From Candidatus Spongiisociaceae bacterium (GTDB lineage: Bacteria; Actinomycetota; Acidimicrobiia; Spongiisociales; Spongiisociaceae): a DNA stretch of 64,000 nt. The notes beneath the pieces are model-generated. The model ran no database searches and had not been told where the DNA came from. It worked only from the letters and a program-made list of their open reading frames with translations. Location: positions 1,760,303 through 1,824,302 of the forward strand of contig OZ251578.1 of NCBI GenBank assembly GCA_965243835.1. Reading direction: 5' to 3'. The translations under genes were made by a program, and so were the position numbers. This document shows, piece after piece, positions 2,239 to 63,122 of this stretch; position 1 is the first letter of the stretch; the number at the start of each line of letters is the position of its first letter.

Positions 2239-2264
2239 CCTCAGCGCCGGAGGGGCGACCGACT

Positions 2265-3936: not shown

Positions 3937-3938
3937 TA

Positions 3939-5801: not shown

Positions 5802-5866
5802 AGCGGGCCCTATATTACACTGGTCGGGCGGGGAAGGCAAATCCGCCGTCCCGCCGAGGAGGACTG

Positions 5867-6856: not shown

Positions 6857-9000
6857 ACCCGCCCGGAGATAAGCCCCGATCCCCCCGCACTCCCCAAAAA
6901 CGACCCCCTTGAATTTGCCGCCCACCTGAATTAAACTGAAAAGGCGGAGCAAAACTGAGGGCGGGCGGGTGGGGGGTGGGCGGGACCCCGCCTTCCGAAA
7001 AATTTTTCCGAGAACGCGAAAAAAATACCTATTTTCCCCAATATCTCCGTCAGGGGAACGCCCACCCGCGCTGGCGCCTCCCCCGGCCCCCGTCTTTGTC
7101 ACACCACCGGATTAAGGTAGGTAACCATGATGACATACGACACCCAACTAGCCCATCAACTCCTCCGAGCGGGCGCCGACGACCCGCACGCCGAGTCCGC
7201 CCGCAACAAGAGAAAGCCACCCGCTTCCTAATAACCCCGCCCGAGAAGAAGCACCGCTCCCCCGCACTCCCCAAAACGACCCCCTTGAATTTGTCACACT
7301 AGGCCATTAAAATTAAAGGCGGAGCAAAACTGGGGGCGGGCGGGTCCCCGCCTTCCGAAAATTATTTCCGAGAACGCGAAAAAAATACTTATTCTCCCCA
7401 ATATTTTCCGTCCGAGGAACGCCCACCCGCGCAGTGCCGTCCCTGCCTCCGTCTTTGACACCCCCGGATTAAGGTAGGCAACCATGACATACAACACCCA
7501 ACTAACCCACCAACTCCTCCGAGCGGGCACCGGCGACCCGCACGCCGCGTTCCACCCCCAACCAGAGGAAGCCACCCGCTTCCTAATAACCCCGCCCGAT
7601 GAGAAACACCGCTCCCCCCACACTCCCCAAAAACGACCCCCTTGAATTTGTCACACTCGGCCATTAAAATTAAAGACGGAGCAAAACTGGGGGCGGGCGG
7701 GCGGGGGGTGGGCGGGTCCCCGCCTTCCGAAAAATTTTTCCGAGAACGCGAAAAAAATACTTATATTTATTTCCGTCAGGGGAAACGCCCGCCGCGCCGG
7801 GTCCCGCGCCTTGGCCCCCGTCTTTGTCACACCACCGGATCAAGGTAGGCAACCATGACATACAACACCCAACTAACCCACCAACTCCTCCGAGCGGGCG
7901 CCGACGACCCGCACGCCGAGTTCCACCCGCAACAAGAGAAAGCCACCCGCTTCCTAATAACCCCACCCGAGGAGAAACACCGCTCCCCCCACACTCCCCA
8001 AAACGACCCCCTTGAATTTACCGCCCGCCTGAATTAAACTGAAAAGGCGGAGCAAAACTGGGGGCGGGCGGGACCCCGCCTTCCGAAAAATTTTTCCGAG
8101 AACGCGAAAAAAATACCTATTTCCCCCAATATCTCCGTCAGAGAAACGCCCACCCGCGCTGGCACCTCCCCCGGCCCCCGTCTTTGTCACACCACCGGAT
8201 CAAGGTAGGCAACCATGACATACGACACCCAACTAACCCATCAACTGCTCCAAGCGGGCGCCAGCGACCCGCACGCCGAGTTCCACCCGCAACAAGAGAA
8301 AGCCACCCGCTTCCTAATAACCCCACCCGAGGAGAAACACCGCTCCCCCCACACTCCCCAAAAACGACCCCCTTGAATTTGTCACACTCGGCCATTAAAT
8401 TAAAAAGGCGGAGCAAAACTGGGGGCGGGCGGGCGGGGGGTGGGCGGGTCCCCGCCCTCCGAAAATTTTTTTCCGAGAACGCGAAAAAAATACTTATTTT
8501 TCCCAATATTTCCGTCAGGGGAACGCCTGCCGCGCCGGGTCCCGCGCCTTGACCGCCATCTTTGTCACACCACCGGATCAAGGTAGGCAACCACAACATA
8601 CGACACCCAACTAGCCCATCAACTCCTCCGAGCGGGCACCAACGACCCGCACGCCGCGTTCCACCCGCAACAGGAGAAAGCCACCCGCTTCCTAATAACC
8701 CCACCCGAGGAGAAACACCGCTCCCCCCACACTCCCCAAAAACGACCCCCTTGAATTTGTCACACTCGGCCATTAAATTAAAAAGGCGGAGCAAAACTGG
8801 GGGCGGGCGGGCGGGGGGTGGGCGGGTCCCCGCCCTCCGAAAATTTTTTTCCGAGAACGCGAAAAAAATACTTATTTTTCCCAATATTTCCGTCAGGGGA
8901 ACGCCTGCCGCGCCGGGTCCCGCGCCTTGACCGCCATCTTTGTCACACCACCGGATTAAGGTAGGTAACCATGATGACATACGACACCCAACTAGCCCAT
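6857..9000 (+). repeat. tandem array A: about 5.8 direct copies of a 355-380-bp cassette. Each copy holds a promoter-like element, a G-rich leader, an A5T5 palindrome, an RBS, and the start codon plus about 30 codons of the downstream helicase gene
   Basis: Motif cactccccaaaa(a)cgacccccttgaatttg recurs at about 6887, 7263, 7621, 7991, 8351 and 8731. ATGACATAC start-like segments recur at 7127, 7484, 7855, 8215 and (ATG lost) 8590; the real start is at 8971. Two unit subtypes alternate 1,2,2,1,2,2, implying a higher-order duplication of about 1.1 kb. Copies differ by several percent. Confidence 0.9.
8751..8779 (+). promoter_or_regulatory. sigma70-like promoter candidate (TTGAAT-N17-TAAATT) of the last cassette, about 190 nt upstream of the helicase start; equivalent hexamers are in every cassette
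   Basis: -35 TTGAAT at 8751-8756, 17-nt spacer, -10 TAAATT at 8774-8779. The same architecture (TTGAAT-N17-TAAAAT) is at 7642-7670 and in the other units. Confidence 0.4.
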
Positions 9001-11067
9001 CAACTGCTCCGGGCGGGGGCCGGCGACCCGCGCGCCGGGTTCCGCCCCCAACAGGAGGAGGCCATTCGTTCCCTGGTCGGGGGCCGGGCCCCGAACCGGC
9101 TGTTGCTGGTTCAGAAAACCGGATGGGGCAAAAGCTTCGTCTACTTCATCGCCACCAAGCTCCTGCGCCGACAGGGGAAGGGGCCGGTCCTGCTCATTTC
9201 GCCCCTGTTGGCGTTGATGCGCAACCAGATCGCGATGGCGGAGCGTTTGGGAGTGGCGGCCGCCGCCATCCACTCCGGCAACAAACCGGAATGGAAGAGC
9301 GTGGTCGAGCGACTGTCCCGGAACGAAATCGACATTCTGCTGATCTCGCCCGAACGGTTGGCCAATCAAAAATTTAGGGAAGACGTGTATGCGCCCCACC
9401 TAAGCCAACCAGGTATGTGGGTGGTGGACGAAGCCCACTGCATATCGGACTGGGGGCATGACTTCCGACCGGATTACCGGCGGATCGAGGGCCTGGTCCG
9501 CGGCCTGCCCCCCAATGTTCCGTTGCTGGCCACCACCGCCACCGCCAATGACCGGGTGGTGGACGACCTAGAGCAAATACTGGGGCCGGATCTGCGAATT
9601 ATGCGGGGCGACCTGGACCGGCCGTCCCTGCGTCTGCAAACCATCGCCATGCCCTCCCCCCGGGATCGCTTGGCCTGGTTGGCGGAGAATGTTCCGCAAC
9701 TGCCCGGCAACGGCGTGATTTACACCTTGACCGTCCGGGATGCGAAGCGGGTGGCCCGGTGGTTGCAAAGTTGCGGAGTGGATGTCCGCGCCTACACCGG
9801 CTCCACCGACCCGGCGGAAAGGCCGGTTCTGGAAAATGCCCTGCTGGACAATCGGCTGAAAGCCTTGGCGGCCACCTCCGCCTTGGGCATGGGTTTCGAC
9901 AAACCGGATTTGGGGTTCGTCATTCACTATCAGGCCCCCGGATCGGTGATCGCCTACTACCAGCAGGTGGGCCGGGCGGGGCGCGGCATCGGCGAGGCCC
10001 GCGGTGTGCTGTTGAGCGGCGTCGAGGACCAGGACATCATCGATTACTTCCGCGAAAACGCCTTCCCGACCCGGGCGGAAGTGAAGGAAATGCTGGCCGC
10101 TCTTAGGAGAGCGAAGGACGGGCTGTCGTTCTACGACCTGGAAACCAGGGTCAACCTCAACAGCTACCGCTTGCGCCAAACCCTGAAATTGATGGAGTTG
10201 GAGACCCCGGCTCCGTTGGCCCGGCAGGATTCGGTCTATCAACTGACCCCGCATCGTCTGGGAGCGGGCTTCTGGGAGCGCGTGGAACGTCTCAACCGAC
10301 TGCGCCGGGAGGAGCAGGCTGAAATGCGGGAATACGTCGGGCTTGCATCGGGGCATATGAACTTTCTCATCAAGGCCCTCAACGGCTCCCCCGCCGCCGG
10401 CGATGACCCGCCGACCCTGCCGCCCCTTCCCACCACCATTTCCGGAAAACACCGGGTGGCCGCCGAGGATTTCCAAAAACGCGACTGGTATAGCATCGCG
10501 CCGCGTAAAAAATGGCCGAGGGGCGGCCTCCCCCGACTCGGCGTCCGCGGCCCCATCCCAGAAGACCGCAAATACCAACGGGGACGGGCCCTTAGTTTGT
10601 GGGGATTCGGCGCTCTCGGTCGGCTGGTAAAACAGGGAAAATACCAAGACGCCCGCTTCCCGGATCAATTGGTGGAAGATTGCCGGCGAATGTTCCGCGA
10701 CTGGAACCCGCAACCAACGCCGCGCTGGGTCGCCTGCGTGCCTTCACACAGCCATCCCGACCTGGTACCCGATTTCGCCCGGCGGCTGGCGGACGCCCTG
10801 GGTCTCCCCTTCCGCTCCGTACTGGAAAAAACCGGCAAAAACCGTCCCGCCCAAAAAGTTATGAACAACAGCAGGATGAGGGCCGACAACGCGGACGGAG
10901 CGTTCCGGGTAAACGACCGCCTGATGGGCCCGGAATACGGGGAACCGGTACTGCTGGTGGATGACGTTGTGAATTCAAGATGGACGATGACCGTGTGCGC
11001 CTGGCTGTTGCTGACGCAGGGAAGCGGCGAGGTGTTTCCGTTGGCCTTGGCGCAGGCGGGGGACTAA
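8971..11067 (+). CDS. RecQ-family DNA helicase fused to a C-terminal ComFC/GntX-like phosphoribosyltransferase (PRTase) domain
   Basis: RecQ motifs: PQQEEAI, TGWGKSF (Walker A), DEAHCISDWGHDFRPDY, LATTATA, YQQVGRAGRGIG. C-terminal about 130 aa carries ComFC-like motifs (NADGAFRV ... VLLVDDVVNS), characteristic of type-I PRTase/ComF proteins. Confidence 0.8.
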   Translation: MMTYDTQLAHQLLRAGAGDPRAGFRPQQEEAIRSLVGGRAPNRLLLVQKTGWGKSFVYFIATKLLRRQGKGPVLLISPLLALMRNQIAMAERLGVAAAAIHSGNKPEWKSVVERLSRNEIDILLISPERLANQKFREDVYAPHLSQPGMWVVDEAHCISDWGHDFRPDYRRIEGLVRGLPPNVPLLATTATANDRVVDDLEQILGPDLRIMRGDLDRPSLRLQTIAMPSPRDRLAWLAENVPQLPGNGVIYTLTVRDAKRVARWLQSCGVDVRAYTGSTDPAERPVLENALLDNRLKALAATSALGMGFDKPDLGFVIHYQAPGSVIAYYQQVGRAGRGIGEARGVLLSGVEDQDIIDYFRENAFPTRAEVKEMLAALRRAKDGLSFYDLETRVNLNSYRLRQTLKLMELETPAPLARQDSVYQLTPHRLGAGFWERVERLNRLRREEQAEMREYVGLASGHMNFLIKALNGSPAAGDDPPTLPPLPTTISGKHRVAAEDFQKRDWYSIAPRKKWPRGGLPRLGVRGPIPEDRKYQRGRALSLWGFGALGRLVKQGKYQDARFPDQLVEDCRRMFRDWNPQPTPRWVACVPSHSHPDLVPDFARRLADALGLPFRSVLEKTGKNRPAQKVMNNSRMRADNADGAFRVNDRLMGPEYGEPVLLVDDVVNSRWTMTVCAWLLLTQGSGEVFPLALAQAGD

Positions 11068-12125
11068 TGACCTGGCCGCTTCTGCCCAATACACAGGCGA
11101 TTCTGCTTTTGACCGCGCCCCTGCTGGCGGGAGGGGAGGGCGACGTAGCCGAACGGTTAAACTTGCGGGGATACCGAAAACTGGAAGAACATCTGCGCGG
11201 TCGGGGGCGCGATCTAGCCGACCTGTTGCTGGAGGACCCGGAGGAGGTTCTGGGGGAAAGCCCGCCCTGCGACATCGGGAGAATCAAGGACCTGCTACGG
11301 AGGGGAGGGCGTCTGGCGGCGGCCGTCGACCATTGGAGCACGCGCGCCATCTGGGTGATCAGCCGCTTCGACGAGGAATACCCGCGCCGCTTCCGCACTC
11401 GCCTCGCCGGCTCGGCCCCTCCTCTGCTGTACGGGTGCGGGGACCGGTCGCTCCTCAACCGGGGGGGATTGGCGGTGGTGGGGCCGCGCCAAGCGGACGA
11501 AGACGCCCTGAAATTCGCCCAGTGGACGGGAGGCTTGACCGCCCGGGCCGGGTTTCCTTTGATTTCCGGCGGGGCGCGGGGTGTGGACCGGGCGGCTATG
11601 ACCGGGGCCATGGAAGCGGGCGGGCAGGCGGTGGGGGTGCTGGCGGGTAAACTGGAAAAAGAAATAATGACCCGCGACCGGCGGGATTGGATTCTGGAGG
11701 AGCAGATGTTGATGGTCTCCCCCTACGACCCCGGGGCCGGTTTTCACCGCGGGACTGCTATGGGACGCAACAAGTTGATCTACAACCTGGCCGACGCCGC
11801 CCTGGCGGTGGAAGCGGACCCCAAACGGGGCGGAACCCGCGCCGGGGCGATGAACCAACTGCAGGCCAACCGCAAACAACCCGACCGACAGGTTCCCATA
11901 TACGTACGGGACATCCCCAGCCCCGGCCTGGACTCCCTGCGGGAAAACGGAGCGCAAACCTGGCCCGACCCGGAAACAGCCGACGAACTAAAAAACATCC
12001 TGGACAGCGCAACGGTATTTGACTCTCCGGACCACTCCCAACCTCGCCCACCTGTCATCCCGGCTGATGAGCTATTTCCCGAAACCAGTCAACAGCAACC
12101 ATTGCCCCTCGGTGCCGGAGGGTAA
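11067..12125 (+). CDS. dprA: DprA/Smf-family protein (DNA-processing protein A; SLOG/Rossmann fold), translationally coupled to the helicase gene
   Basis: Start ATG overlaps helicase stop (TAATG at 11065-11069). DprA SAM-like N-domain (EYPRRF..APPLLYGCGD) and Rossmann core (LAVVGPRQA, ISGGARGVDRAAMTGAMEAGGQAVGVLAGKL, SPYDPGAGFHRGTAMGRNKLIYNLADAALAVEA). Confidence 0.7.
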   Translation: MTWPLLPNTQAILLLTAPLLAGGEGDVAERLNLRGYRKLEEHLRGRGRDLADLLLEDPEEVLGESPPCDIGRIKDLLRRGGRLAAAVDHWSTRAIWVISRFDEEYPRRFRTRLAGSAPPLLYGCGDRSLLNRGGLAVVGPRQADEDALKFAQWTGGLTARAGFPLISGGARGVDRAAMTGAMEAGGQAVGVLAGKLEKEIMTRDRRDWILEEQMLMVSPYDPGAGFHRGTAMGRNKLIYNLADAALAVEADPKRGGTRAGAMNQLQANRKQPDRQVPIYVRDIPSPGLDSLRENGAQTWPDPETADELKNILDSATVFDSPDHSQPRPPVIPADELFPETSQQQPLPLGAGG

Positions 12126-12560
12126 CTACTCCTCCGCATCATCAATATTGTTAGGGTTCATAGACTCCGCCAACTGCTCTACTTGGTTTATCAATAATTC
12201 AATCTCGGGAACAGTAGGTACCAAATCATATTCGTGATGGTGACAGGCCCGACTTAGGGCTACCCAAGCGGAGTGGGCATCTTCGGATGTCACAGTATCA
12301 ACTGCAACCCTACCGTCTCGGGCTAATTGCTTAAGACAAGCAAGTTGCGTAAACCGGCTTGTATTCTTCATATAGCGATAATAGTAATGGTCATTCCAAA
12401 GTCTGTCCAGTGTCGCTTCAAGAACTTGGCGAGTCAGCAAAGCCGCCGCCCGATGCCATTCGCCTCGCGGCCCATCAGTATGGTTGAGTAAACCCCGAGC
12501 GAGGTTTAGTAGGTCAAGGGTCATAACGACGTAATCTTTCGGCCAAACTTTGACAATCAT
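12126..12560 (-). CDS. small His-rich hypothetical protein (144 aa), downstream partner of the Rad50/SMC-like ATPase
   Basis: AT-rich ORF overlapping the upstream gene by 47 nt; no recognizable motif. Confidence 0.45.
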   Translation of the reverse strand: MIVKVWPKDYVVMTLDLLNLARGLLNHTDGPRGEWHRAAALLTRQVLEATLDRLWNDHYYYRYMKNTSRFTQLACLKQLARDGRVAVDTVTSEDAHSAWVALSRACHHHEYDLVPTVPEIELLINQVEQLAESMNPNNIDDAEE

Positions 12561-14922
12561 TAATTAGATTAGCCAAATCACCAGAATATTTACTATGAGT
12601 ACCTTTATTAGTATCGCTGAATACCTCTGCAAATCTCTTCCCCCATTTACTGGAGATTTTACCAAACACTTTGTCGCTTTTATTAATACTATCAAATAAC
12701 GCTACAGAGGCTTTCTGACTTAATTTCTTGGCCTCGAATAACTCTTGTTCAATCACCTGATGAGTTTTACCTTTATCCAGCCATCGTCGCCATACTGCTT
12801 CCACACAGGCGGCTTCTAATCCGCTACGACAAAACCCTGGAATAACCCGCCTTGCTATATCCTCTAGCATATCATCATCCTTCAAAATGGACCGTGCCTC
12901 AAAAAAATATTGAATAACCGGATCGCGCTTTTCCGCAATAGTAACTTTCGATTTTACCGATCTCCTAACCTCTAGACAATGGTGTTCAATATCTAAATGA
13001 CGTAAAGACTCCGGGAGTCGATTGTCGTGAGTGAACACAATTAGTTGACGACTCTTGGCAACCTTGGCGAATACTCTGGCTAGTCCATCAACCCGAGCAG
13101 GGTCCATAGATTGTATCGGATCGTCAATAACCAAAAAGCGAAAGGGACTAGCGGGAAGCATTACCCGGGGAAAGAAAATGGACAAAGCCAAACTGTTTAT
13201 TTCTCCTTGACTAACCACAGACAAGGCATCTGTCTTAATATCATCCACTTCCACCCCAAGGGCCACTCTACGTTTAGTGCGACTACCAGTTAGTTGAACG
13301 GAAAGTAAATCAACGTTGCTTTCCAAACGTAGTTCTTTCCAAATTTCCAAGGCCTGGTTCTCTATAGGAGACCAACGGGTGTTACGTATATTTTCGTTTA
13401 CTTCTTTAAGATATTTTTCTGCCCTTTTTAGGTTAGTAATTTCTGATTGCTCTCTCCTTACTCGACAGGCTTTGTGAACCCAAGGCGAAAGAATAGACAT
13501 AGCCGCTAGCCACTTTTCTTCTCTATCAGAGTACAACTGACGAGCTTGTTCAATAATTTTATTTGCTTCACTTTCGACCGAGGAGTATAATGTAAGCAAG
13601 TGTTCATCTATTTCACTTTTATCGTCAGGCAACGAACTCCACTTTTTCCAAATAGAAACCAGCGAACCTATCTCTATAGTTTCAGTGTCGGACAATAGAG
13701 GAGGTTCTATCAAAATCTCAACCTCCTTTATTACGTTTTCCAGATTACTTTTGGCATCCCTATATTTTTGAGAGCTTGCTTTCAGTCTTTCTATCTGCTC
13801 TTCTACTTTGGTAACCCAACTACTATCCAAAATACCTTCTTCGCAAACTGGACAACGATTGTTCTCGTGTGTGCCATAATATTTCAAAGCCAGATTTAAT
13901 ATACTCATTAAGTTTTCGGCGTGCTCTGCTTCCGTACCAGATAAGTTAGACCAATCTGTATATGCCTTGTTCAGTTTTTTTGCTATTTTCAATACTTGCT
14001 CTTGATTTGGAACCTTGATATTTATAAGAGTTTGTAAATCCTGATGATAAGTAACTGGCTCCGATTGAAGACTTTTTATAATATCCAAGTCCCAATTTCG
14101 TTTCTTGACAGCTTCCACAACTTTTGTTGCACGCGGGTCTTCTAGTTGCTCAAACTGGGGAAGAATATTATTTTTTCGTTCTGCCTCTACCTGGTTTGCC
14201 AGTTTTTCTCGTGCTAATCGGGTATTAGCTAAAGCTTTCATCGCTTGGGCAATAATACCAATACCGAGTACTTTGCTGAGAGTGTCATGCAGGGATGACG
14301 GACTATTTTCAATGATGCCAAGTTCCTTATACGATAAAATGGGGCGATATAAATCAAGTGGTTCTTTCCAACCTATTCCATCTAGATCGGAAATTTCCTT
14401 TCCATGATGTTGCGCACTGCATTTTCCTTCTTCCAGTTCGGAATTTTGGGACCAAGTGCACTCTACCATAGTTGGTTTATTCATTCCTTCTACTTGAAAT
14501 CTGGCGGATATTTTGGTATTATTGCCCTGATGGAGATTCCGCCAGCCTTGCTTCCAAACTACCGCTTTTTTGCTTTCCCAGCGATAGCTATCCCCGGTTA
14601 ACAATACTTCCAATCCTTCTGCGAAGCTGGACTTGCCGGAGCCGTTTCTGCCTACAACGACCGTAAGACCCGGGCCGGGAGGTATCTCCAATGTGGCCTC
14701 CGGTCCGATACCGCGAAACCCGGATACCGTTATGTCCTGTAGGTAAACAGGCGGAACCAGCTCTCCGTTGTCCGACATCGTATCGGGTCCATCTACGTAT
14801 TCATCAGTTAAGACGCGCTCCACGTCATCCTCACCCCTGAGGGCGGCTAGCACCAGGCTTATAATCTGCTCGTCTTTAGTAAGTTTGGCGAGCTCTTGTT
14901 CTACTTCTTGATAGAGGCCCAT
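12514..14922 (-). CDS. Rad50/SbcC/SMC-like ABC ATPase with a central CxxC zinc hook (802 aa)
   Basis: Walker [13 protein letters not shown] signature VSQGE, Walker B RFLVIDDP, H-loop IVFTHD, long coiled-coil middle with NRCPVCEEG zinc-hook motif. AT-rich relative to flanks. RBS AGGAGGGG 5 nt before ATG at 14922. Confidence 0.7.
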   Translation of the reverse strand: MGLYQEVEQELAKLTKDEQIISLVLAALRGEDDVERVLTDEYVDGPDTMSDNGELVPPVYLQDITVSGFRGIGPEATLEIPPGPGLTVVVGRNGSGKSSFAEGLEVLLTGDSYRWESKKAVVWKQGWRNLHQGNNTKISARFQVEGMNKPTMVECTWSQNSELEEGKCSAQHHGKEISDLDGIGWKEPLDLYRPILSYKELGIIENSPSSLHDTLSKVLGIGIIAQAMKALANTRLAREKLANQVEAERKNNILPQFEQLEDPRATKVVEAVKKRNWDLDIIKSLQSEPVTYHQDLQTLINIKVPNQEQVLKIAKKLNKAYTDWSNLSGTEAEHAENLMSILNLALKYYGTHENNRCPVCEEGILDSSWVTKVEEQIERLKASSQKYRDAKSNLENVIKEVEILIEPPLLSDTETIEIGSLVSIWKKWSSLPDDKSEIDEHLLTLYSSVESEANKIIEQARQLYSDREEKWLAAMSILSPWVHKACRVRREQSEITNLKRAEKYLKEVNENIRNTRWSPIENQALEIWKELRLESNVDLLSVQLTGSRTKRRVALGVEVDDIKTDALSVVSQGEINSLALSIFFPRVMLPASPFRFLVIDDPIQSMDPARVDGLARVFAKVAKSRQLIVFTHDNRLPESLRHLDIEHHCLEVRRSVKSKVTIAEKRDPVIQYFFEARSILKDDDMLEDIARRVIPGFCRSGLEAACVEAVWRRWLDKGKTHQVIEQELFEAKKLSQKASVALFDSINKSDKVFGKISSKWGKRFAEVFSDTNKGTHSKYSGDLANLINDCQSLAERLRRYDP

Positions 14923-20159: not shown

Positions 20160-21300
20160 TATGCGCCGTCATGGGAAACCGGCCCCCGGCCCGTTGCGAC
20201 CGACCCCCGAAACCCGACCCGACCGGAAAAATTTCGCGGACGAAACCACCCGCCCGCCCCCCTCCCTCCCGCCCTTAATATACCCAAAAAATCACAACCA
20301 AACAAGAGGGTCTTTTCCCGAGAACGACGAAACACCAGGTCAAAGACACAATTAACGCTAAAAAATCTTACGCGAAGCCGAACGGACGGAACAATCCCGA
20401 CAACGGGGCCGCGGCGAAGGCATCTCGGCGGCACCCCGATTGCTTCCGCCCAAACCGGGCATCCCGACAATGGGAGCGCAGGAGCACCCCGGCATAGAGG
20501 GGCGAAGGCGTTATAACCCAATCACCAAAACGCGAATCGTCCCAACAACCCCAAGTCGCCGGCCAGCGGGAACGATGACCATCCCCAGCGGGAAACACTG
20601 CGCGCCGTCCCCGGGTAACCGGCCCTGCCCCTGTTGCGGCCAACCCGCAGAACAACCCGACCGAAAAAATTTTCGCGGACGAAACCTCCCACCCGCCCGC
20701 CCCCCTCCCTCCCGCCCTTAATATACCCAACATTCTGAAACTAAACAAGGGGGTCTTTTCGCGAGAACGACGAAACACCAGGTCAAAGGCACAATTGACG
20801 CTAAAAAATCTTACGCGAAACCGAACGGACGGAACAATCCCGACAACGGGGGCGCGGCGAAGGCATCTCGGCGGCACCCCGATTGCTTCCGCCCAAACCG
20901 GGCAACCCGACAACGGGCGACCGCGCACCGGAGCACCGGAGCGGCCCGGATAGAGGCGAGGCGTTGTAACCCAATCGCCAAACGCGAATCGTCCCGTCCC
21001 AACAACCCCAAGTCGCCGGCCAGCGGGAAACAATGCGCGCCGTCCCCGGTTAACCGGCCCTGCCCCTGTTGCGGCCAACCCGCAGAACAACCCGCCGAAA
21101 AATTTTCGCGGACGAAACCGCCCACCCGCCCGCCCCCCTCCCTCCCGCCCTTAATATACCCAACATTCTGAAACTAAACAAGGGGGTCTTTTCGCGAGGA
21201 TCGCGAAATGCCGGGTCAAACGCATAATTTGTGCTTAATGAATTTTTCGCGAGGTCGGATGCGGGTCAAACGGGCGACGGGGGCGGCGGGACGGCCTGTG
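20160..21300 (-). repeat. tandem array B: about 2.6 copies of a 431-445-bp unit between the MFS gene and tRNA-Val. Each unit carries, on the minus strand, the same promoter/G-rich/A-T-palindrome core found in array A
   Basis: ccctccctcccgcccttaatatacc recurs at about 20262, 20702 and 21137. The reverse complement of the unit aligns to the array A core (gacccccttg ... taWaWt ... gggggcgggcgggtggg ... cgaaaa(a)tttttcg). Confidence 0.85.
20277..20305 (-). promoter_or_regulatory. sigma70-like promoter candidate (TTGTTT-N17-TATATT, minus strand) in the MFS-proximal unit, reading toward the MFS transporter gene
   Basis: rc of 20300-20305 = TTGTTT, 17-nt spacer, rc of 20277-20282 = TATATT. The same arrangement is in the other units. 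Confidence 0.4.
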
Positions 21301-21322
21301 CGTTGCTAGAGTGGAGGGGGCG

Positions 21323-21396
21323 GGGCGTTTAGCTCAGTCAGGGAGAGCGCTTCCCTTACAAGGAAGAGGTCGGCGGTTCGAACCCGTCAACGCCCA
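21323..21396 (+). tRNA. tRNA-Val (anticodon TAC)
   Basis: Manual cloverleaf folding: acceptor GGGCGTT/AACGCCC, D-arm GCTC-AGTCAGGGA-GAGC, anticodon stem CTTCC/GGAAG with loop CTTACAA, T-arm GGCGG-TTCGAAC-CCGTC, discriminator A; CCA not encoded. Confidence 0.85.
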
Positions 21397-21499
21397 CTCT
21401 TTCCCTCGTCCGCGTTCGCCGGTCCGCGCCGGCGGGTCCGGTTGCGGGGGGAGCTGGGGAAACGCATGAAATAGAAACTTCTTTAGAAGGAGTCGTCCG

Positions 21500-24779: not shown

Positions 24780-25900
24780 CTACCCCCTGCGACCGCCGCC
24801 AGCGACGCTCGCCGCCCCGGCCGACTTGGGGGGTTGTCCGCCGACGGCATTAAACCCGGCCACCGGACCCTCCCCGACATCCACCCGCCGCCCCCGACCG
24901 ACGAGAGCCTGACAAATAGCCTTCGGTCCAGGCGGCGAACACCCGACCGAAAGTGAAACCGGTTCCCGGAACCGGGCAGGCCCGCCCCGACCCGCAACCT
25001 CCAAAAACAACCCATCGTCGCCCCCACCCCCGCGCAACCGGCCCACGGACGCCGAAAACGACGAAACCGACCGCGAACGCCATCCGACAAGACATCCCGC
25101 AACGAAATTAAACACCGCGCACTCCCCCGGCCAAACCCGCGCCCCGACGACCGGACCCTCCCCGACGCCCACCCATAACACCTGCCGCCCCCGGCCCGAG
25201 CAGGAAGCGCCTCGCAACGAAACAGGTCGCCGGTGGCCCCGAACACCGCCGACAAATGACCTTCCACCCATCCCTACACCCACCGCCGGAAACATCCCCG
25301 CCAACGGCCAAGCCCGGCAAAGACCGGACCCCGGCCGCCGGGTCCTCCCCGACATCCACCCGCCGCCGACGACCGACGAGAGCCTGACAAACACCCTCCG
25401 GCCCGGGCGGCGAACAACCGACCGCAAGCGAAACCGGTTCCCGGAACAGACAGGCCCACCCCGCCCCGACCCGCAACCTCCAAAAACAAACCATCGTCGC
25501 CCCCGCCCCCGCGCAACCAGCCAACGGGCCGACAACGAAGGCCGAAACCGACCGCGAACGCCATCCGACAAGACATCCCGCAACGACATTAAACACCGCG
25601 CACTCCCCCGGCCAAACCCGCAAGACCCGCACCCCGACCCACCGGACGCTCCCCGACGCCCGCCGCCCCCGGCCCGAGCAAGAAACGCCTCGGGGCACCC
25701 GAGCGGCGAACACCCGACCGAAAGCGAAACCGGTTCCCGGAACAGACAAGGCCCGCCCCGACCCGACCCGCAACCTCCAGAAACAGTCCGTTGCCGCCCC
25801 CGCCCCTGCGCAACCGGCCAACGGATGCCATAAGCGAAGGCCGAAACCGACTGCGACCGCTGTCCGATAAAAGGCCTCGCAACGAAATTAAACACCGCGC
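24780..25900 (-). repeat. tandem array D: degenerate tandem copies (units about 280-500 bp) of the pgi-3'-end / intergenic / zwf-5'-end junction
   Basis: Segments resembling the last about 200 nt of pgi (cgacgagagcctgaYaa ... gaaaccggttcccggaac) recur at about 24860, 25340 and 25640 (plus the copy in the 3' part of ORF 25888..26472). A copy of the zwf start region (aacaggtcgccggtggccccgaacaccg) is at about 25210-25270. cgcaacgaaattaaacaccgcgc recurs at 25092, 25591 and 25872. Confidence 0.8.
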
Positions 25901-26472
25901 GCTCCGCCGGCCAAGCCTGATAAGGTCCCCGCGGCGGTCACCGGATCCTCCCCTGCATACGCCCGCAATGCCCGCCGTTCCCGAACGAGGAGAGCCTGAT
26001 AATCGCCTCCGGCCGGGGCGGAGTCGCTTCCGTTATCCTCCGTCCTACGCTCCCCGTCTTGAATCAGCCAGGCGATCTGTTCTGCGTTCAAAGTAGGCGG
26101 AGCCAACTGCGAGGCAAACGATTTCCAAGGATGCTTGCCCGGATTTTTGTTGGGCACGTTCTTCACGAAGGTCAGTTGCAGATGCCAGCCCGGTTCCAAC
26201 CCGGAGCGGATGCAACGTTCCACTTCGGTGCGCAGCGCCTTCTTCTCCAAGCTGATCCTCCGGTAGGGGCCGTGGCCGCCTTCGCTCTGGTTCGGAACCG
26301 TGGGATCGTAAATCTGAACCAAACCGACCGGCTTCCCGGCGGCGGCAAGAGCGCCGCTCTCCAGGTTGATGAAGGTCACAACGCCTACCACCGTAAAGCC
26401 GGGCTCCGGCCACTTGACGCAACGGCCCCGCAAAACGCCCCGCGCGCCTTCTGCCAAATTGAGGTGCGTCAT
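25888..26472 (-). CDS. hypothetical protein (194 aa) whose C-terminal about 45 aa is a diverged duplicate of the PGI C-terminus (chimeric ORF)
   Basis: C-terminus APAGGDYQALLVRERRALRAYAGEDPVTAAGTLSGLAGGARGV parallels the PGI C-terminus AQAGGDYQALIGRGRRVLRVDVGEDPAAGVRALLDLARGGA. N-terminal 150 aa unrecognized. Confidence 0.45.
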   Translation of the reverse strand: MTHLNLAEGARGVLRGRCVKWPEPGFTVVGVVTFINLESGALAAAGKPVGLVQIYDPTVPNQSEGGHGPYRRISLEKKALRTEVERCIRSGLEPGWHLQLTFVKNVPNKNPGKHPWKSFASQLAPPTLNAEQIAWLIQDGERRTEDNGSDSAPAGGDYQALLVRERRALRAYAGEDPVTAAGTLSGLAGGARGV

Positions 26473-26539: not shown

Positions 26540-28188
26540 TTAAGCGCCGCCCCGGGCCAAGTCCAGCAAGGCCCGCACCCCGGCCGCCGGGTCCTCCCCG
26601 ACGTCCACCCGCAACACCCGCCGTCCCCGGCCGATGAGGGCCTGGTAGTCGCCTCCGGCCTGGGCGGCGATCAACCGACCGAAAGTGAAATCGGTTTCCG
26701 GAACGGGCAGGTCCGGGCCGCCCCGGTCCACGATCTGCAGAAACATCCCGTTGTCGGCCCCGCCCTTGTGCAACTGGCCGGTGGAATGCAAAAAACGGGG
26801 GCCGAAGCCGACGGTGACCGCCGTCCGGTGGGCGTCCCGCAGGGCGCGGCGCAGTTCCGCCAGGAGCGGGGAGGCCGGGCCGTCCATCGGCAGGTAAGCC
26901 TGGACGGCCAGGTAATCGCCGGGGCGGAGGCCGGCCAGCCATTCCCCCCAGGCGGCGGCCAAAAGCGGGGGGCGGGCGGCGTCCGTCGCCTCCGGCAACG
27001 GTGGCCCCTCCCCGGACATGGCCCGGTTGGCCAAGTCTTTGGCCACTTGCACGTCCGGCTGGTCGAACGGGTTGATCCCCAACACCGCCCCGGCGGCGGC
27101 CGTCGCCATCTCGCTCCGGTACAACTCCCCTCCCAAGTCATAGGGGTCGTCCGCCGTGATGCGCACAATGGGATGGCCGACGGCCTGCAGGGCTTCCAAA
27201 GCGGCCGGGACGCCGGCCGGGTCGTCGTCGGCCAACGCCAGGTGAATGAACAGCCGGTCCGGGCCGTAGGAGTCGGGACCGCCTACCGGTTCGTCGGTCA
27301 CCGGAACCAAACCGGTTCCCCGTTTGCCGGTGCTTTCCGCCAGCAACTGCTCCGCCCACGCTCCGTAGGCGGCCAGGGAGGGGGAGGTCAGGAAAGTGAT
27401 CTTGTCCCGGCCGGCCCGGGCGGCCTCCCCCATCACCGCCCCCAGTTTCAGGCCCGGATTGTCCGGCGGGGGACGGTGCGGGCCGCATTCTTCCATCATC
27501 TCCGCCGCCCCGGACAGCAGACGGGCGGCGTCCATTCCCAGCAGGGCGGCCGGAACCAGCCCGAAGGCGGTCAGGGCCGAATAGCGCCCGCCCACCTCGG
27601 GCGGAGCCCGGAACACCCGGCGAAACCCCCGCTCTTCGGCCAGGGATTCCAAACCGGAACCGGGATCGGTTATCGCGGCGAACCGGCTCCCCGGCTGGGC
27701 CGCAACCCGTCCGACCTGCTCCCAGAAGTACCGGAACAGGGACAGGGTTTCCAGGGTGCCCCCCGATTTGGAGGACACCAAAAAGAGGGCGCGCTCCGGA
27801 TCCAGGCGGGCCCCGGCCTCCCGCACCGCCGCCGGGTGGGTGCTGTCCAAAACCGTCACATCCGGATAACCGGGAGCGGACCCGAATATTTCCCGAAACA
27901 CTTCCGGGGCCAGGCTGGAGCCGCCCATCCCCAACAGGACCACCCGGTCGCACCATGGGCGAACCTCCTCGGCGAAGGCCCGCCACTCCGGCAGGGTTGC
28001 GGCGGCTACGGCCGGGGCCCGCAACCAGCCCAACCGGTCGGTCAGTTCGGGGACGGGCTCCGCCGACCACAGGGCGTGGTCGCCTTCCCACAGCCGGGTT
28101 CCGAAATCGGCCCGCTCCCAAGCCCGCAGGCGCTCTGCGACCGGCTCGGCCAAATCCGCCAACGCATAGGAAACGGTCGCGCTCATAA
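26540..28188 (-). CDS. pgi: glucose-6-phosphate isomerase
   Basis: PGI motifs (GMGGSSLAPEV, SKSGGTLET, GGRYSALTAFGL, bidomain length about 549 aa). Start set to ATG at 28188 (MSATVSYALADL); the longer ORF-track version runs into repeat array C. Confidence 0.85.
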
Positions 28189-28189
28189 C

Positions 28190-30188
28190 GTTAATGCTCC
28201 ATTCATAAGGGGGCGTTTGCTCCTGCTTTCCCGTTTTCGCACCGGGACCTACCCCGGACTTTACCGGCTGATTATGCCACCCCCGGCGGGCGGCGAACCG
28301 GCGCGGCGCGGTATCCGCGCACCGCCGCCCTTTGCCAGCCATAAAATCCACCGGGCCGGTAACGCCGCCGCATCGCAGAACCCGCACCGGATTAACAAAA
28401 GCCCGCCCGCCCCCGCCGGGCGAATCGGGGCCGGCCAGCTCCCGGTAACGGAACAAACTCTCCCTGACCGTCAAGGCCGACACCGGCGCGCGGCCAGCGA
28501 GCAACCCCCGCCCGGACAGCGAAACCAGGCTACGCGACGTTACGCAACCACCAAGGCGTCCCCATCAACGCGCATAGCCCCGGGCAGAGTCACATAAACA
28601 GTGGCGCAAGCGGGAAAATCCACCGAACCGGTAAAACCGCCGCATCCAAAACCCGCACCGAACTAACAAAAACGCACCGCCCCTCGGCGGGCGAAATCAG
28701 GACCGCACCGCTCCCCCGACAACCCAAACAAACCCTCCCCAACCGGCCACGGCCGACACCAGCGCACGGCTTACGAGTAGGGACCAGCGGGCAACGAACC
28801 CGATTGTACGGACTTACACAACCACCAAGGCATCCACATCAACGCGCATAGCCCCGGGCAAGGTCACCGTACACAGTGGTGCGAGCGGGGAAATCCACCG
28901 GACCGGTAAAACCGCCGCATCCAAAACCCGCACCTAACTAACAAAAACGCACCGCCCCTCGGCGGGCGAATCGGGGCCAGCCGGGCTCCCCGACAACCGG
29001 AACAAACCCTCCCCAACCGGCCAACGCCAACACCGGAGCACGGCCAGCACGCAACCCCCGGCCGGACAGCGAAACCAGGCTACGCGACGTTACGCAACCA
29101 CCAAGGCATCCCCATCAATACGCATCACCCCGGACAAGGTCACGTACACAGTGGTGCGAGCGGGGAAATCCACCGGACCGGTAAAACCGCCGCATCCAAA
29201 ACCCGCACCTAACTAACAAAAACGCACCGCCCCTCGGCGGGCGAATCGGGGCCAGCCGGGCTCCCCGACAACCGGAACAAACCCTCCCCAACCGGCCAAC
29301 GCCAACACCGGAGCACGGCCAGCACGCAACCCCCGGCCGGACAGCGAAACCAGGCTACGCGACGTTACGCAACCACCAAGGCATCCCCATCAATACGCAT
29401 CACCCCGGACAAGGTCACGTACACAGTGTGCGAGCGGGGAAAATCCACCGAACCGGTAAAACCACCGCATCCAAAACCCGCACCGAACTAACAAAAACGC
29501 ACCGCCCCTCGGCGGGCGAATCGGGGCCAGCCGGGCTCCCCGACAACCGGAACAAACCCTCCCCAACCGGCCAACGCCAACACCGGAGCACGGCCAGCAC
29601 GCAACCCCCGGCCGGACAGCGAAACCAGGCTACGCGACGTTACGCAACCACCAAGGCATCCCCATCAACGCGCATAGACCCGGGCAAGGTCACCGTACAC
29701 AGTGGTGCGAGCGGGGGAAATCCACCGAACCGGTAAAACCACCGCATCCAAAACCCGCACCGAACTAACAAAAACGCACCGCCCCTCGGCGGGCGAATCG
29801 GGGCCAGCCGGGCTCCCCGACAACCGGAACAAACCCTCCCCAACCGGCCAACGCCAACACCGGAGCACGGCCAGCACGCAACCCCCGGCCGGACAGCGAA
29901 ACCAGGCTACGCGACGTTACGCAACCACCAAGGCGTCCACTTCAATACGCATCGCCCCGGACAGGGTCACGTACACAGTGTGCGAGCGGGGGAAATCCAC
30001 CGGACCGGTAAAACCGCCGCATCCAAAACCCGCACCGGATAACAAAAGCGCACCGCCCCTCGGCGGGCGAATCGGGGCCGGCCGGCTCCCCGACAACCGG
30101 AACAAACCCTCCCGACCGGCCACGGCCGACACCGGCGCGCGGCCGGCGGGCAACCCACGGCGGGGCGGCTAACCCGGGTTGCGCGGCC
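28190..30188 (-). repeat. tandem array C: 7 decayed direct copies (about 275 bp each) of an internally deleted ridA gene, between the ridA stop and the pgi start
   Basis: ttacgcaaccaccaagg recurs at 28540, 28813, 29090, 29365, 29640, 29916 and 30189 (the genuine ridA 3' end), with periods of 273-277 bp. Units retain ridA-like 3' (TVYVTLPGAMRIEVDALVVA-like) and 5' segments. The units at 29090 and 29365 are near-identical. Confidence 0.9.
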
Positions 30189-30566
30189 TTACATCACCGC
30201 CAAGGCGTCTACTTCAATGCGCATGGCCCCGGGCAGGGTTACGTATACGGTGGTGCGGGCGGGGAACGGCTCGACGAAGAACTCGCGCAGGGCGTCGTTC
30301 ATAGCCGGAAAATCCGCCGGGTCGGTGAGAAACACCCCCAACCGGATCACGTTTTCCGCGCCCGCCCCGGCCGCTTCCAGGACCCGTGCCAGGTTGGCGA
30401 AGGCGCGCCGGGCCTCGGCGGCGAAATCGGGGCCGGCCAGCTCCCCGGTAACCGGATCGAACCCTCCCTGGCCGGCCAGGGCCAGCACCGGCCCCCGGCG
30501 CACGGCCGGCGAGTAGGGACCGGCGGGCGGCGGGGCCTGGTCGGTGAAAGTCGCCTGTTTGTTCAT
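30189..30566 (-). CDS. ridA: RidA/YjgF family reactive-intermediate deaminase
   Basis: RidA motifs (GPYSPAV, NVIRLGVFL, TVYVTLPGAMRIEVDA); start taken at MNKQATF (30566). A longer alternative starting at 30611 overlaps the upstream gene. Confidence 0.8.
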   Translation of the reverse strand: MNKQATFTDQAPPPAGPYSPAVRRGPVLALAGQGGFDPVTGELAGPDFAAEARRAFANLARVLEAAGAGAENVIRLGVFLTDPADFPAMNDALREFFVEPFPARTTVYVTLPGAMRIEVDALAVM

Positions 30567-40231: not shown

Positions 40232-40765
40232 TCAGTCGGGGTCGTAATCGTCGTCGTAGACATCGCATTCGCCATCTTGGTCGTCGTCGTCCTCGTCGCA
40301 ATAGTTGTCGTAGTCGTGCTCGTAGTCATCGCATTCGCCGTCGTAGTATTCTTGGTCGTCCTCGCAGACGAAGGTGGTCGTGGTGGTCGCCTTGGTGCTC
40401 TTGGTGGTGGTAGTCGGCTTGGTGGTGGTCGTCGTCGGGGCGGTAGTGGTAGTCGCGGGCCGGGCGGCGGGGTCCACCGAGTGCAGATGGTCCTGCCCGC
40501 CGCTGAGGAAAGTGGCCGCCTGCCCGCGGGTCAAACCGTCCGGGTAGGCCCGCAACAGGACTTTGGCCAACTGCGCGGCGGTGATGTTCCGATCGGGCCG
40601 GAACGACCCGTCCGGGTAACCCTGGAACCATCCCCGCTCCACGGCCACCCGTATGCCGTCGGAATGCAGATGCGCATCGGGCACATCGTCAAACGAGGTC
40701 AACGCAACCGCCGCCGCCCCGCCCAACAACACCGCGAAAAATACCGACGCCAATATTCTTTTCAT
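40232..40765 (-). CDS. SLH-domain protein with poly-Thr linker and acidic Cys-containing C-terminal tail
   Basis: Signal peptide, SLH motif (FDDVP..H....I....G...GYPDGSFRPD..ITAAQLAKVL), T-rich linker (TTTTAPTTTTTKPTTTTKSTKATTTTT), D/E/Y/C-rich tail. Confidence 0.7.
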   Translation of the reverse strand: MKRILASVFFAVLLGGAAAVALTSFDDVPDAHLHSDGIRVAVERGWFQGYPDGSFRPDRNITAAQLAKVLLRAYPDGLTRGQAATFLSGGQDHLHSVDPAARPATTTTAPTTTTTKPTTTTKSTKATTTTTFVCEDDQEYYDGECDDYEHDYDNYCDEDDDDQDGECDVYDDDYDPD

Positions 40766-40806
40766 AGTAGTACCTCCGCTATCACCGAAGAAGGTTTGAA
40801 TACCAA

Positions 40807-41532
40807 CTACCCAAGTATCTCGGTAAGGATATTACTACGGGTACGGTCCTTGTATAAATAATAATACCAATTATAAAAAACGCCTCTCCGTAAATCCCAC
40901 ACCTCGATTTTTATCCTTCTGTTGTCACCGGGCCAAGTATGAGTTGGGCTATAACCTCCCACCTCATATGGATCTACTGTAAATGAAGTAGAATCCCAAA
41001 AATTATCGACATCTATCTCCACACCAAAATCAATATTGCACTCACTATTATCAATGGAAAAACGGATCTCGTTGTCTGATAACCATTCAGCCTCTCCTAG
41101 GGGGAACGGGCAGGAAAATGGTGCCGCAAGAGTGGTTGGAACGGTGGCTGTAGTCGTGGTAGTCCTTATGATAGGTCGCGTAGTGGTTGTGGTTGTTATA
41201 ACGGGTCTGGTAGTAGTTGTAGTAGTGGGTGGGCCGTTTTCCAGGTAGGTTATGCCGTAGTACAGGATGGCCGCCGTCTGGGCCCTGGTTATGGAGTCGT
41301 AGCTGTCAAACAGGCGTTTTACCACTATTTGCAGTTCGTTTTCGGACAGCTCCCTATCCGGTTTGAAACTCCGGTCAATATAGCCTTGGAACAAGCCCCT
41401 GTTGTAAGACCATTCTATGGCCTCATTAAACTCGTGATCTTGCGGAACATCCGTGAAGCGACCGCTGGTGGCAATCACGGGAGCGGCCAGCAACAACGCC
41501 AACGTAGCGGTGGCTATCAACCTGAACTTCAT
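40807..41532 (-). CDS. SLH-domain protein with poly-Thr linker and AT-rich C-terminal domain
   Basis: Signal peptide, SLH motif (FTDVPQDHEF..AIEW....GLFQGYIDRSFKPD), T-rich linkers, low-GC C-terminal half. Confidence 0.65.
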   Translation of the reverse strand: MKFRLIATATLALLLAAPVIATSGRFTDVPQDHEFNEAIEWSYNRGLFQGYIDRSFKPDRELSENELQIVVKRLFDSYDSITRAQTAAILYYGITYLENGPPTTTTTTRPVITTTTTTRPIIRTTTTTATVPTTLAAPFSCPFPLGEAEWLSDNEIRFSIDNSECNIDFGVEIDVDNFWDSTSFTVDPYEVGGYSPTHTWPGDNRRIKIEVWDLRRGVFYNWYYYLYKDRTRSNILTEILG

Positions 41533-45260: not shown

Positions 45261-46331
45261 ATGAAACTACAAACCTGCAACTCCCCGGCCCCGCTCGGCG
45301 ACGACGGCCCCTCCGCGACGGGTTCCAGCGCCCGCGCCGAATATTCGCTGCACCGGGGCGACGTATTGGACGTCTATCAGGACTGGCCCCGCCCGGATGC
45401 GATAATTTCGGACGGAGCCTACGGCTTGGGGGGCTTCCCCGGCGACCCGCCCTCCGCCGCCCGGTTGCCCGAATGGTACGCTCCGCATGCGCAAGCCTGG
45501 TCCAAATACGCCCTGCCGTCCACCGCCTTGTGGTTCTGGAACACGGAACAGGGTTGGGCGTCGTGCCATCCCCTGCTCATGGAATTGGGATGGGTCTACG
45601 AGCAAACCATCGTCTGGGATAAAGGCCTGGGCCATGCGGCCGGCAACTCCAACGGCCAAACCCTGCGCCGGTTCCCGGTGGTGACGGAGGTGTGCGTGCT
45701 CTATTCCCGCAAACTGGAGTTTCCGACCGGACGGGCAATGCTGACCGCGCAGGAATGGTTGCGACATGAGTGGCGACGTTCCGGTCTGCCGCTCAACTCG
45801 GCCAACGAAGCGTGCGGGGTGCGCAACGCCGCCGCCCGCAAATACCTGACCTCGGATCGACACTGGTATTTCCCGCCGGCCGGGATGATGGAACGAATGG
45901 CGCGCTACGCCAACCAACGCGGCCGTCCGACCAGCCGCCCCTACTTCTCCATCGACGGCGAGCGGCCGGTCACGGCCGCGGACTGGCGGAAGCTGCGATA
46001 CAAATGGAACTTTGAACACGGCGTCACCAACGTTTGGAATCACCCTCCGGTAAACGGCAAAGAGAGGTACCGGGGCTCCGGTTCAGGTTCCGCGCCCCAT
46101 GGCCGTAATCCGGGACCCAACTCCGCCGCCCATCTCAACCAAAAACCCTTGGCCCTAATGAGGCGGATTGTCAAAGCCTGCACCGACCGCGCCGATGTCG
46201 TGTGGGAACCTTTCGGCGGCTTGTGCACCGGTGCGGCGGCCGCCCTGGAGTTGGGTCGCCGGGCGTACGCGGCGGAAACGGTGACGTTCTTCGCCGACAT
46301 AGCCCAAGAACGCCTAGCGCAAGCGGCTTAA
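45261..46331 (+). CDS. beta-class DNA methyltransferase (N6-adenine/N4-cytosine family) with atypical motif IV
   Basis: C-terminal motif I NQKPLALMRRIV...VVWEPFGGLCTG; order IV-then-I typical of the beta class. The catalytic tetrapeptide position reads SDGAY rather than DPPY. GC-rich (native composition). Confidence 0.65.
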   Translation: MKLQTCNSPAPLGDDGPSATGSSARAEYSLHRGDVLDVYQDWPRPDAIISDGAYGLGGFPGDPPSAARLPEWYAPHAQAWSKYALPSTALWFWNTEQGWASCHPLLMELGWVYEQTIVWDKGLGHAAGNSNGQTLRRFPVVTEVCVLYSRKLEFPTGRAMLTAQEWLRHEWRRSGLPLNSANEACGVRNAAARKYLTSDRHWYFPPAGMMERMARYANQRGRPTSRPYFSIDGERPVTAADWRKLRYKWNFEHGVTNVWNHPPVNGKERYRGSGSGSAPHGRNPGPNSAAHLNQKPLALMRRIVKACTDRADVVWEPFGGLCTGAAAALELGRRAYAAETVTFFADIAQERLAQAA

Positions 46332-63121: not shown

Positions 63122-63122
63122 A

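Follow-up and report, generated by a model that had tools for sequence, protein, structure and literature searches.

Tandem duplication and the decay of pseudogenes are in themselves ordinary. The exocyclic amino groups of cytosine and adenine, and the N3 and N1 positions of these bases, are vulnerable mainly in single-stranded DNA. A combination of C>T and A>G changes on one strand is the classical single-strand signature, known from the heavy strand of vertebrate mitochondria, and C>G changes accompany uracil excision and abasic sites. In fungi, repeat-induced point mutation (RIP) concentrates C>T changes in duplicated DNA. Here we compare with these systems a tandem array, termed array C, that lies between the genes ridA and pgi in a stretch of 64,000 nucleotides from a Candidatus Spongiisociaceae bacterium (contig OZ251578.1, positions 1,760,303 to 1,824,302); this whole stretch is referred to as the window. 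We consider array C to be, with some probability of being right, a tandem amplification that is young, specific to its lineage and most likely without function, and that was hit by a repeat-restricted, strand-specific mutation process; this reading is the probable one. To our knowledge, a ~20-fold one-strand excess confined to tandem repeats at five unrelated loci of one bacterial clade has not been described, and a search of the literature turned up no account of arrays like these from bacteria or sponge symbionts.

Array C was recorded by Tandem Repeats Finder with a period of 275 bp, 7.0 copies, 89% matches and a score of 2769 at 28344-30266; note that the copy number rests on a single assembly. 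The units are arranged head to tail and occupy the gap between the ridA stop codon (30189) and the native leader of pgi, whose start is at 28186. The elements of the locus are as follows, loci in related genomes being labelled L081 to L091:

30189..30566, minus strand: ridA, functional, 125 aa, Ribonuc_L-PSP (Pfam PF01042, E 9e-30), 89% identical in nucleotide sequence to the L083 orthologue
29917..30188, minus strand: unit U1, 272 nt, adjoining ridA, with the fewest C>T changes (25), 73.8% identical to ridA
29640..29916, minus strand: unit U2, 277 nt, in the recently homogenised core U2-U5 (93-98% mutual identity)
29365..29639, minus strand: unit U3, 275 nt
29090..29364, minus strand: unit U4, 275 nt, 97.5% identical to U5
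28814..29089, minus strand: unit U5, 276 nt
28540..28813, minus strand: unit U6, 274 nt, of an older lineage, retaining the ridA-like GGTCCCTACTCG
28295..28539 (approx.), minus strand: unit U7, proximal to pgi, 3'-truncated, lacking the 17-mer discussed below, the most diverged unit with 62.5% identity to ridA
28187..28282, minus strand: native, unduplicated pgi leader with a conserved -10-like CATAATC/GATAATC, from alignment with the spacers of L081-L088
26540..28186, minus strand: pgi, 548 aa, PF00342, the downstream neighbour, whose 3' end spawned a further array, B' (24780-25887)

An earlier note on this DNA, made from the sequence alone, had counted seven occurrences of a motif at 273-277 bp. 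The tandem array is real, but only six copies of this 17-mer, TTACGCAACCACCAAGG, lie within it. They start at 28540, 28814, 29090, 29365, 29640 and 29917, five of them exact and the one at 28814 with one mismatch, where 0.14 copies with up to three mismatches would be expected by chance. The seventh, at 30189, is the real end of ridA, carries four mismatches and stands outside the array; counting it, the spacing is 272-277. With the ridA orthologue of L083, from another genome, as the query, two blocks (nt ~63-199 and ~301-378) were matched in each of the units (E 1e-9 to 7e-21), and for this reason the units are ridA-derived beyond doubt, as had been proposed. Their architecture is a different one, however. 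Instead of a 5' piece and a 3' piece flanking a single deletion of about 150 nt, alignment to ridA and to a reconstructed ancestral unit gives an extent from ridA nt 36 to the stop codon plus ~20 nt of native 3' spacer, and an ancestral length of 362 nt that was reduced to 275 nt by three common deletions of 7, 37 and ~45 nt (~88 nt in total). Small open reading frames (ORFs) are indeed present on the minus strand, with a reading frame that shifts between units.

The units fall into a homogeneous centre and more diverged edges. Units U2, U4 and U5 are 97-98% identical to each other (U2/U5 97.8%), and U3 reaches 93-96% with these three; identity to the core units is 85-89% for U1, 79-82% for U6 and 65-76% for U7, and identity to ridA ranges from 62 to 74% across all units. 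The earlier description of two adjacent, near-identical units among more diverged ones applies to U4 and U5, and its core reading holds, namely that a truncated copy of ridA was duplicated in tandem again and again, some units being recent and others older. Old edges with a homogenised centre are typical of unequal-exchange arrays. The units have a GC content of 65%, against ~70% in the flanking genes, and their minus strand, which will emerge below as the mutated one, is rich in G (40%, versus 26% C).

Taken together with its neighbour, ridA is in effect the first unit of array C, joined to its own unduplicated first 35 nt. The boundaries of the duplicated segment are marked by a direct repeat:

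30520..30531, minus strand: direct repeat copy 1, GCCGCCCGCCGG, ridA nt 36-47, upstream boundary of the duplicated segment
28283..28294, minus strand: direct repeat copy 2, GCCGCCCGCCGG, downstream boundary of array C, right before the native pgi leader

The ridA-pgi region of the window contains this 12-mer just two times, at a distance of 2237 bp, and array C is bracketed by the two copies. In L082, the closest relative free of array C (pgi 91% identical in amino acids), the 12-mer is present at ridA nt 36 and again 20 nt past the stop codon, 362 bp apart, and its position within ridA is identical in L082, L083, L084 and L086. The sequence predicted for a duplication junction fits the starts of the units, most clearly in U6.

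Relatives were found by protein search, in assemblies that appear to be sponge metagenomes. An exact look-up of the window pgi gave no match, and a contig scan returned no close relative, the best match being 60-62% identical among the matches listed. The next named relatives of the window RecA (about 82%) belong to the Acidimicrobiia and include 'Candidatus Spongiisocius', which makes a sponge-associated member of the Acidimicrobiia the most likely host of the array. The order ridA, spacer, pgi is shared by the further syntenic relatives L083-L086 (84-86%) and L087-L089 (77%), and in all eight loci L082-L089 the spacer measures 5-128 nt and array C is absent. Because of these eight short spacers we regard array C as young and lineage-specific, and it appears to have arisen after the split from the L082 lineage. 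No long-period arrays were found at the ridA-pgi locus of L082-L089 apart from arrays at the pgi 3' end of L082. There they follow pgi, and the contig ends before zwf; in L083-L089, pgi overlaps zwf. The 95% relative L081 carries U7, and the 3' half of U7 is ~99% identical to its counterpart there, the 5' half being a mosaic. The 7.5-kb contig of L081 terminates in array C on one side and in a further array, array B, on the other. Note that positions 1-54 of this contig hold the reverse complement of the ridA start region fused to a U7-like unit, which may be a genuine inversion or else a chimera formed at the repeat where the contig ends. Altogether, arrays were found in the window, L081, L082 and L090, and none in L083-L089.

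A bracketing repeat, in-register head-to-tail units and absence from syntenic sisters were thus all found, as expected for a tandem duplication between short direct repeats. The alignments show that array C began with misalignment between such repeats and that deletions, amplification and homogenisation followed the duplication at the 12-bp repeat. In outline, misalignment between the two copies of GCCGCCCGCCGG, by slippage or unequal exchange, duplicated ridA from nt 36 to the stop codon plus 20 nt. The first copy still completes ridA, and the second, devoid of a start codon, was free to decay. Having lost 7, 37 and ~45 nt, this spare copy became the 275-nt unit and was re-amplified to about seven, with the centre homogenised last. 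Array C resembles known cases of direct-repeat duplication with unequal-crossover amplification in its in-register units, its 12-bp repeat, its old edges and its homogenised centre. It is unlike them in that several arrays with units of 275-470 bp occur within ~25 kb of one sub-clade, and in the hypermutation of one strand.

To describe this hypermutation, changes were counted with ridA as the ancestor and read on the ridA-sense, that is the minus, strand. Summed over all units, C>T was found 223 times versus 7 for G>A, A>G 66 times versus 32 for T>C, and C>G 62 times versus 11 for G>C. The asymmetry persists when each site is counted once: C>T affects 46 of 93 sites and G>A 2 of 84 (Fisher p 5e-14), A>G 13 of 31 and T>C 7 of 39 (p 0.035), C>G 13 of 93 and G>C 3 of 84 (p 0.018). 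About half of the C on the minus strand of array C has become T and some 40% of the A has become G, with extra C>G on top, so that array C displays the pattern of one-strand deamination: C>T and A>G are raised, and their complements remain at background level. These counts show that on the minus strand alone the amino bases C and A were lost and the keto bases T and G gained. Such a shift on one strand is classically a mark of damaged single-stranded DNA, either through deamination of C and A or through N3-C/N1-A lesions. The C>T excess arose on several independent branches, as evidenced by 11 private C>T versus 2 G>A in U6, and U1 retains 12 ancestral C where other units carry T. The dinucleotide context of C>T is not clear (TC 8/10, CA 6/8, CT 8/11, CC 17/41, CG 15/33), and in consequence neither an APOBEC-like TpC preference nor a CpG/5-methylcytosine explanation is supported.

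To obtain the background in the same lineage, changes on the window branch were polarised by means of L082 and L083. Eight flanking genes on the same strand offer 1369 four-fold sites, where C>T was found at 13 of 501 and G>A at 9 of 542, with 11 C>G and 10 G>C, and 308 unique non-coding columns yielded 3 C>T (3/65) and 5 G>A. The G>A frequency in the array (2.4%) equals this background (p 0.65), whereas C>T exceeds it ~20-fold (p 9e-31). As G>A stands at background, the age of the array fits the window branch and the minus-strand excess is genuine. The excess is limited to duplicated segments and ends at the array boundary: the pgi leader at 28187..28282 is not hypermutated, and the 378 nt of ridA hold 9 changes specific to the window, whose spectrum is symmetric, with zero synonymous C>T and no unit-like segments. 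Since the duplication, the last codon of ridA (30189-30194) has turned into ATG (Met); the ancestral GCG (Ala), also the codon of L083, persists in all the pseudo-units. The pattern of strand-specific hypermutation, in array C and in the further arrays described below, is solid. Stretches of the window that are unskewed and 'unassigned' had also been considered as junk controls and were withdrawn, as comparison with the syntenic L090 and L091 reveals that some of them, at the least, are coding.

The same signature is found in at least four further arrays of this clade, three of them in the window, all three A+C-rich on the plus strand, and one in L090, a strain whose RecA is identical to that of the window:

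6860..8970, plus strand: array A, about six units of 360-380 bp copying the promoter and first ~100 nt of a RecQ/DpdF-like helicase gene (8971-11067, plus strand)
20200..21322, plus strand: array B, ~2.5 units of ~440 nt, degenerate copies of tRNA-Val(TAC) and its upstream region
24780..25887, minus strand: array B', the ~280 nt at the pgi 3' end in three degenerate copies, together with a single copy of the zwf 5' end
L090 17677-19770: dapF array, three degenerate copies (period 410-470) of the dapF 3' ~350 nt and downstream sequence

Array A lies between two plus-strand genes and shows, on the plus strand, 44 G>A, 25 T>C and 11 G>C versus 5 C>T. Also present in each of its units, on the plus strand, are TTGAAT-17-TAAATT, which resembles a -35/-10 pair, and a GC hairpin that has a T-run. 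Array B sits between a divergent MFS gene (minus) and the real tRNA-Val gene (21323-21397, plus), and against the invariant tRNA its pseudo-copies carry 15 G>A, 11 G>C, 4 T>C and 0 C>T; it is absent from L085, L087 and L089, where the spacers measure 553, 317 and 199 nt. The gene-proximal copy of the tRNA-Val upstream region (21150-21322) differs from L085 in the opposite direction, for example CACAAT to CATAAT. A -10-like hexamer is improved by this change, which may reflect adaptation of the promoter once the duplication had taken place. Array B' separates pgi from zwf, which overlap in array-free relatives, and has 61 G>A and 49 T>C versus 11 C>T on the plus strand. A 194-aa ORF of lower GC content (25888-26472), without a match in Pfam or NCBIfam, is embedded in array B' and also present in L081; its last ~40 aa stem from a pgi 3' pseudo-copy (GGDYQALLVRERRALRAYAGEDP, against GGDYQALIGRGRRVLRVDVGEDP in pgi). 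The pgi array of L082 follows the same pattern: identity falls with distance from the gene (89.5, 85.2 and 77%), and C>T is counted 57 times versus 9 for G>A, A>G 44 times versus 8 for T>C. The dapF array of L090, missed by Tandem Repeats Finder and picked up by a composition scan, has a keto skew of up to 0.47, with 81 C>T versus 10 G>A, 35 A>G versus 9 T>C and 24 C>G versus 2 G>C.

In every array the mutations fall on the minus strand of the window or on the strand syntenic with it, for parent genes of plus and of minus orientation alike. Since arrays A and B flank plus-strand genes, polarity is independent of the sense of the parent gene. It agrees with a weak replication-type bias in the four-fold skew of plus- and minus-strand genes, according to which the minus strand is G/T-rich (leading-strand-like), and all arrays come from one replichore. 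From the constant polarity, whatever the parent orientation, we infer that it is the minus strand that is recurrently single-stranded. As the lagging-strand template of units that are prone to misalignment, it may be exposed repeatedly during replication or gap repair, in loop-outs or post-replication gaps; alternatively, it may be re-synthesised by an error-prone polymerase. Bursts that strike the functional terminal copy, ridA, would be removed by selection, which would leave this copy clean. The outcome would be that ridA and pgi lie 2 kb apart, separated by a G+U-rich stretch to which each unit contributes one weak terminator-like hairpin; pgi retains its native leader.

Two described processes come close to this picture. 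With vertebrate mitochondrial DNA array C shares the pairing of C>T and A>G on one strand, a high frequency per site and a polarity that is tied to the strand and not to the gene; it differs in being confined to tandem arrays of a bacterial chromosome, where neighbouring genes are almost unbiased. Clusters of the kataegis type, attributed to APOBEC or alkylation at resected breaks, in break-induced replication or on lagging-strand templates, likewise show strand-coordinated C>T, C>G and changes at A, and the burst behaviour that they imply would explain a clean selected copy. Here the array differs in that it has no clear TpC context and has its changes spread over evolutionary time and several branches.

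Several points weigh against a replication-linked, repeat-restricted process. The link to replication stands on the weak four-fold skew and on five arrays in one neighbourhood, none of them from the opposite replichore. The clean ridA, without synonymous C>T, needs the extra assumption that burst hits are purged whole by selection. With 308 unique non-coding columns, 'repeat-specific' and 'visible only in unconstrained DNA' are not strictly separable. In array B', the recent changes that separate L081 from the window are asymmetric on the window side (9 C>T and 1 G>A) and not on the L081 side (4 and 6), with small counts in both cases, and the copy number of array C derives from one assembly.

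Single-strandedness might also originate from transcription. Leftward transcription would yield a G-rich RNA that pairs with the C-rich template, and in the resulting R-loop the displaced minus strand would be deaminated, with the G-skew feeding back on the process. Arrays C and B' and the dapF array do directly follow genes that have the mutated strand as their sense strand, this strand is G-rich (40% versus 26% C), and array B, situated between the divergent MFS and tRNA-Val genes, could have units that copy leftward promoters. Array A does not conform: placed between two plus-strand genes, it copies the promoter and 5' end of the plus-strand helicase gene and yet is mutated on the minus, that is the template, strand. 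The tRNA-Val pseudo-copies are mutated on the strand antisense to the tRNA, and the adjacent genes, certainly transcribed, are symmetric at four-fold sites. We consider damage by transcription unlikely.

A dedicated process, akin to RIP or based on a deaminase, could recognise duplicated DNA or its single-stranded loops and would inactivate and stabilise the duplicates. The parallel to fungal RIP is evident in C>T changes that are concentrated in duplicated DNA far above background, with inactivation of the spare copies. C>T is restricted to duplicated DNA (46/93 in the units versus 13/501 at four-fold sites and 3/65 in unique spacers), about half of the C is converted, the excess stops at the array boundary, C>G appears alongside C>T as it does after uracil excision, and the phenomenon appears suddenly in one sub-clade (window, L081, L082 and L090) and not in L083-L089. 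The array differs from RIP, however, in its bacterial host, in the use of one absolute strand, in additional A>G and C>G and in sparing the functional copy. Neither the mutation of both strands and all copies nor a CpA preference was found (G>A 2/84; ridA clean; CA 6/8 and CT 8/11), and apart from TC (8/10) the other contexts stand at ~0.45. A>G is per site nearly as frequent as C>T, which is not expected of a cytosine deaminase. Searches of the window proteins against Pfam, NCBIfam and PHROGs found no deaminase, reverse transcriptase or recombinase next to the arrays, and in the 64-kb window Pfam searches revealed no RID- or DNMT-like gene and no deaminase or reverse-transcriptase gene. A targeted process of this kind seems improbable to us.

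Two other repeat-based systems were considered and rejected. The silent cassettes of Borrelia vls and Neisseria pilS, and orphan toxin C-terminal arrays, are similar in that an intact gene is followed by 5'-truncated, head-to-tail copies with a strong G-skew. The present arrays differ from them, as ridA is a housekeeping gene that is invariant with respect to its orthologues and as arrays also occur at a tRNA and at a promoter region. Antigenic variation is contradicted by the 9 changes in 378 nt of ridA, by its lack of unit-like segments and by deletions of 7, 37 and ~45 nt that break the frame. A diversity-generating retroelement does not fit either, with changes mainly at C (223) plus A (66), an invariant ridA and no reverse transcriptase in the window.

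The array might, on the other hand, be functional as it stands, with a selected composition, and serve as an insulator or terminator stack uncoupling pgi from ridA, as the source of a G+U-rich RNA or as a platform for protein binding. The earlier note had suggested that repeated potential terminators or promoters space ridA from pgi. Terminator-like hairpins are indeed present once per unit in the ridA/pgi sense, as in the following example, but no promoter-like sites were found in a scan of array C:

29777..29796, minus strand: terminator-like hairpin, CCGCC-GAGG-GGCGG followed by TGCGTTTTTG, recurring once per unit

These hairpins are weak, with a stem of 5-6 bp and an interrupted T-run, and the T-run was made by C>T changes in former ridA coding sequence. 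The 15 terminator-like sites, versus 7.7 expected, are copies of 2-3 independent sites and were not counted as an enrichment. An Rfam search of array C gave no match at E<=1, the units fold no better than shuffled sequence (z = 0.12) and no ORF is conserved across them; with the weak hairpin, this does not amount to a structured-RNA or intrinsic-terminator array. The composition is uniform across arrays, but it is all that they have in common, given their unrelated sources (ridA, pgi, tRNA, helicase promoter and dapF). Furthermore, array C is missing from eight related loci of otherwise identical synteny, and its units diverge fast and differ by insertions and deletions. A selected function of array C is unlikely because it is absent from close relatives, evolves fast and shares only composition with the other arrays, and a functional array as the cause of the pattern has very little in its favour.

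Ordinary neutral pseudogene decay, under the genome-wide bias of a high-GC bacterium with relaxed selection on GC, would agree with the lower GC content of the units (65% versus ~70%) and with copies that are clearly unconstrained. It predicts equal C>T and G>A, however, and is already contradicted by 46/93 versus 2/84; changes are symmetric at four-fold sites and in unique spacers, where those at C are also 10-20 times rarer. In addition, the array post-dates the split from L082 (12.6% four-fold divergence), and yet its units differ from ridA by 26-37%. We find this explanation scarcely tenable. An assembly or sequencing artefact, such as a collapsed or expanded repeat or strand-specific base-calling errors, is least credible of all: although the copy number comes from one assembly and short-read assemblies of relatives break at the arrays, independent short-read assemblies of other samples share the hypermutated sequences (the U7 3' half at ~99% in L081, the pgi arrays of L081 and L082, dapF in L090), and a unit divergence of 2-35% is too high for assembler duplication.

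The remainder of the window contains features of a different nature. Segments of low GC content (37-50%) at 550-5840 and 8971-14922 resemble a defence island, with two DUF6339 proteins, a PAPS-reductase-like protein, two large proteins without a family match, the RecQ/DpdF-like helicase with a C-terminal phosphoribosyltransferase-like part and an 802-aa SMC/AAA ATPase. Two SLH-domain proteins are encoded at 40232-41532, the first with in-frame tandem repeats (periods 12-66, 40241-40463) that form an acidic low-complexity stretch. DNA methyltransferase genes are found within 45261-46331 (N6_N4_Mtase), 52843-53565 (MT-A70, adjoining DUF5131 beside recA) and 61515-64000 (HsdM, after which the window ends with a segment of 33% GC). 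The restriction-modification content looks rich and partly foreign.

In practical terms, the arrays break short-read assemblies, as in L081, which ends in arrays on both sides, and they create spurious ORFs, including the 194-aa ORF with its pgi-derived C-terminus. In a wider frame, and with considerable reserve, one may suggest that a sponge-associated clade of the Acidimicrobiia acquired a process that spawns tandem duplications of 275-470 bp at gene ends and subsequently mutates one strand of the spare copies (C>T, A>G and C>G). If this were true, misaligned tandem DNA in bacteria would be subject to a process comparable to RIP or to the deamination of the mitochondrial heavy strand. A targeted mechanism would make it a prokaryotic analogue of RIP. 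If it is linked to replication, the arrays would record, as natural reporters, which of the two strands lies exposed during the passage of forks through repeats and how long this lasts, and they would also reveal the spectrum of single-strand damage in an uncultured actinobacterial symbiont.

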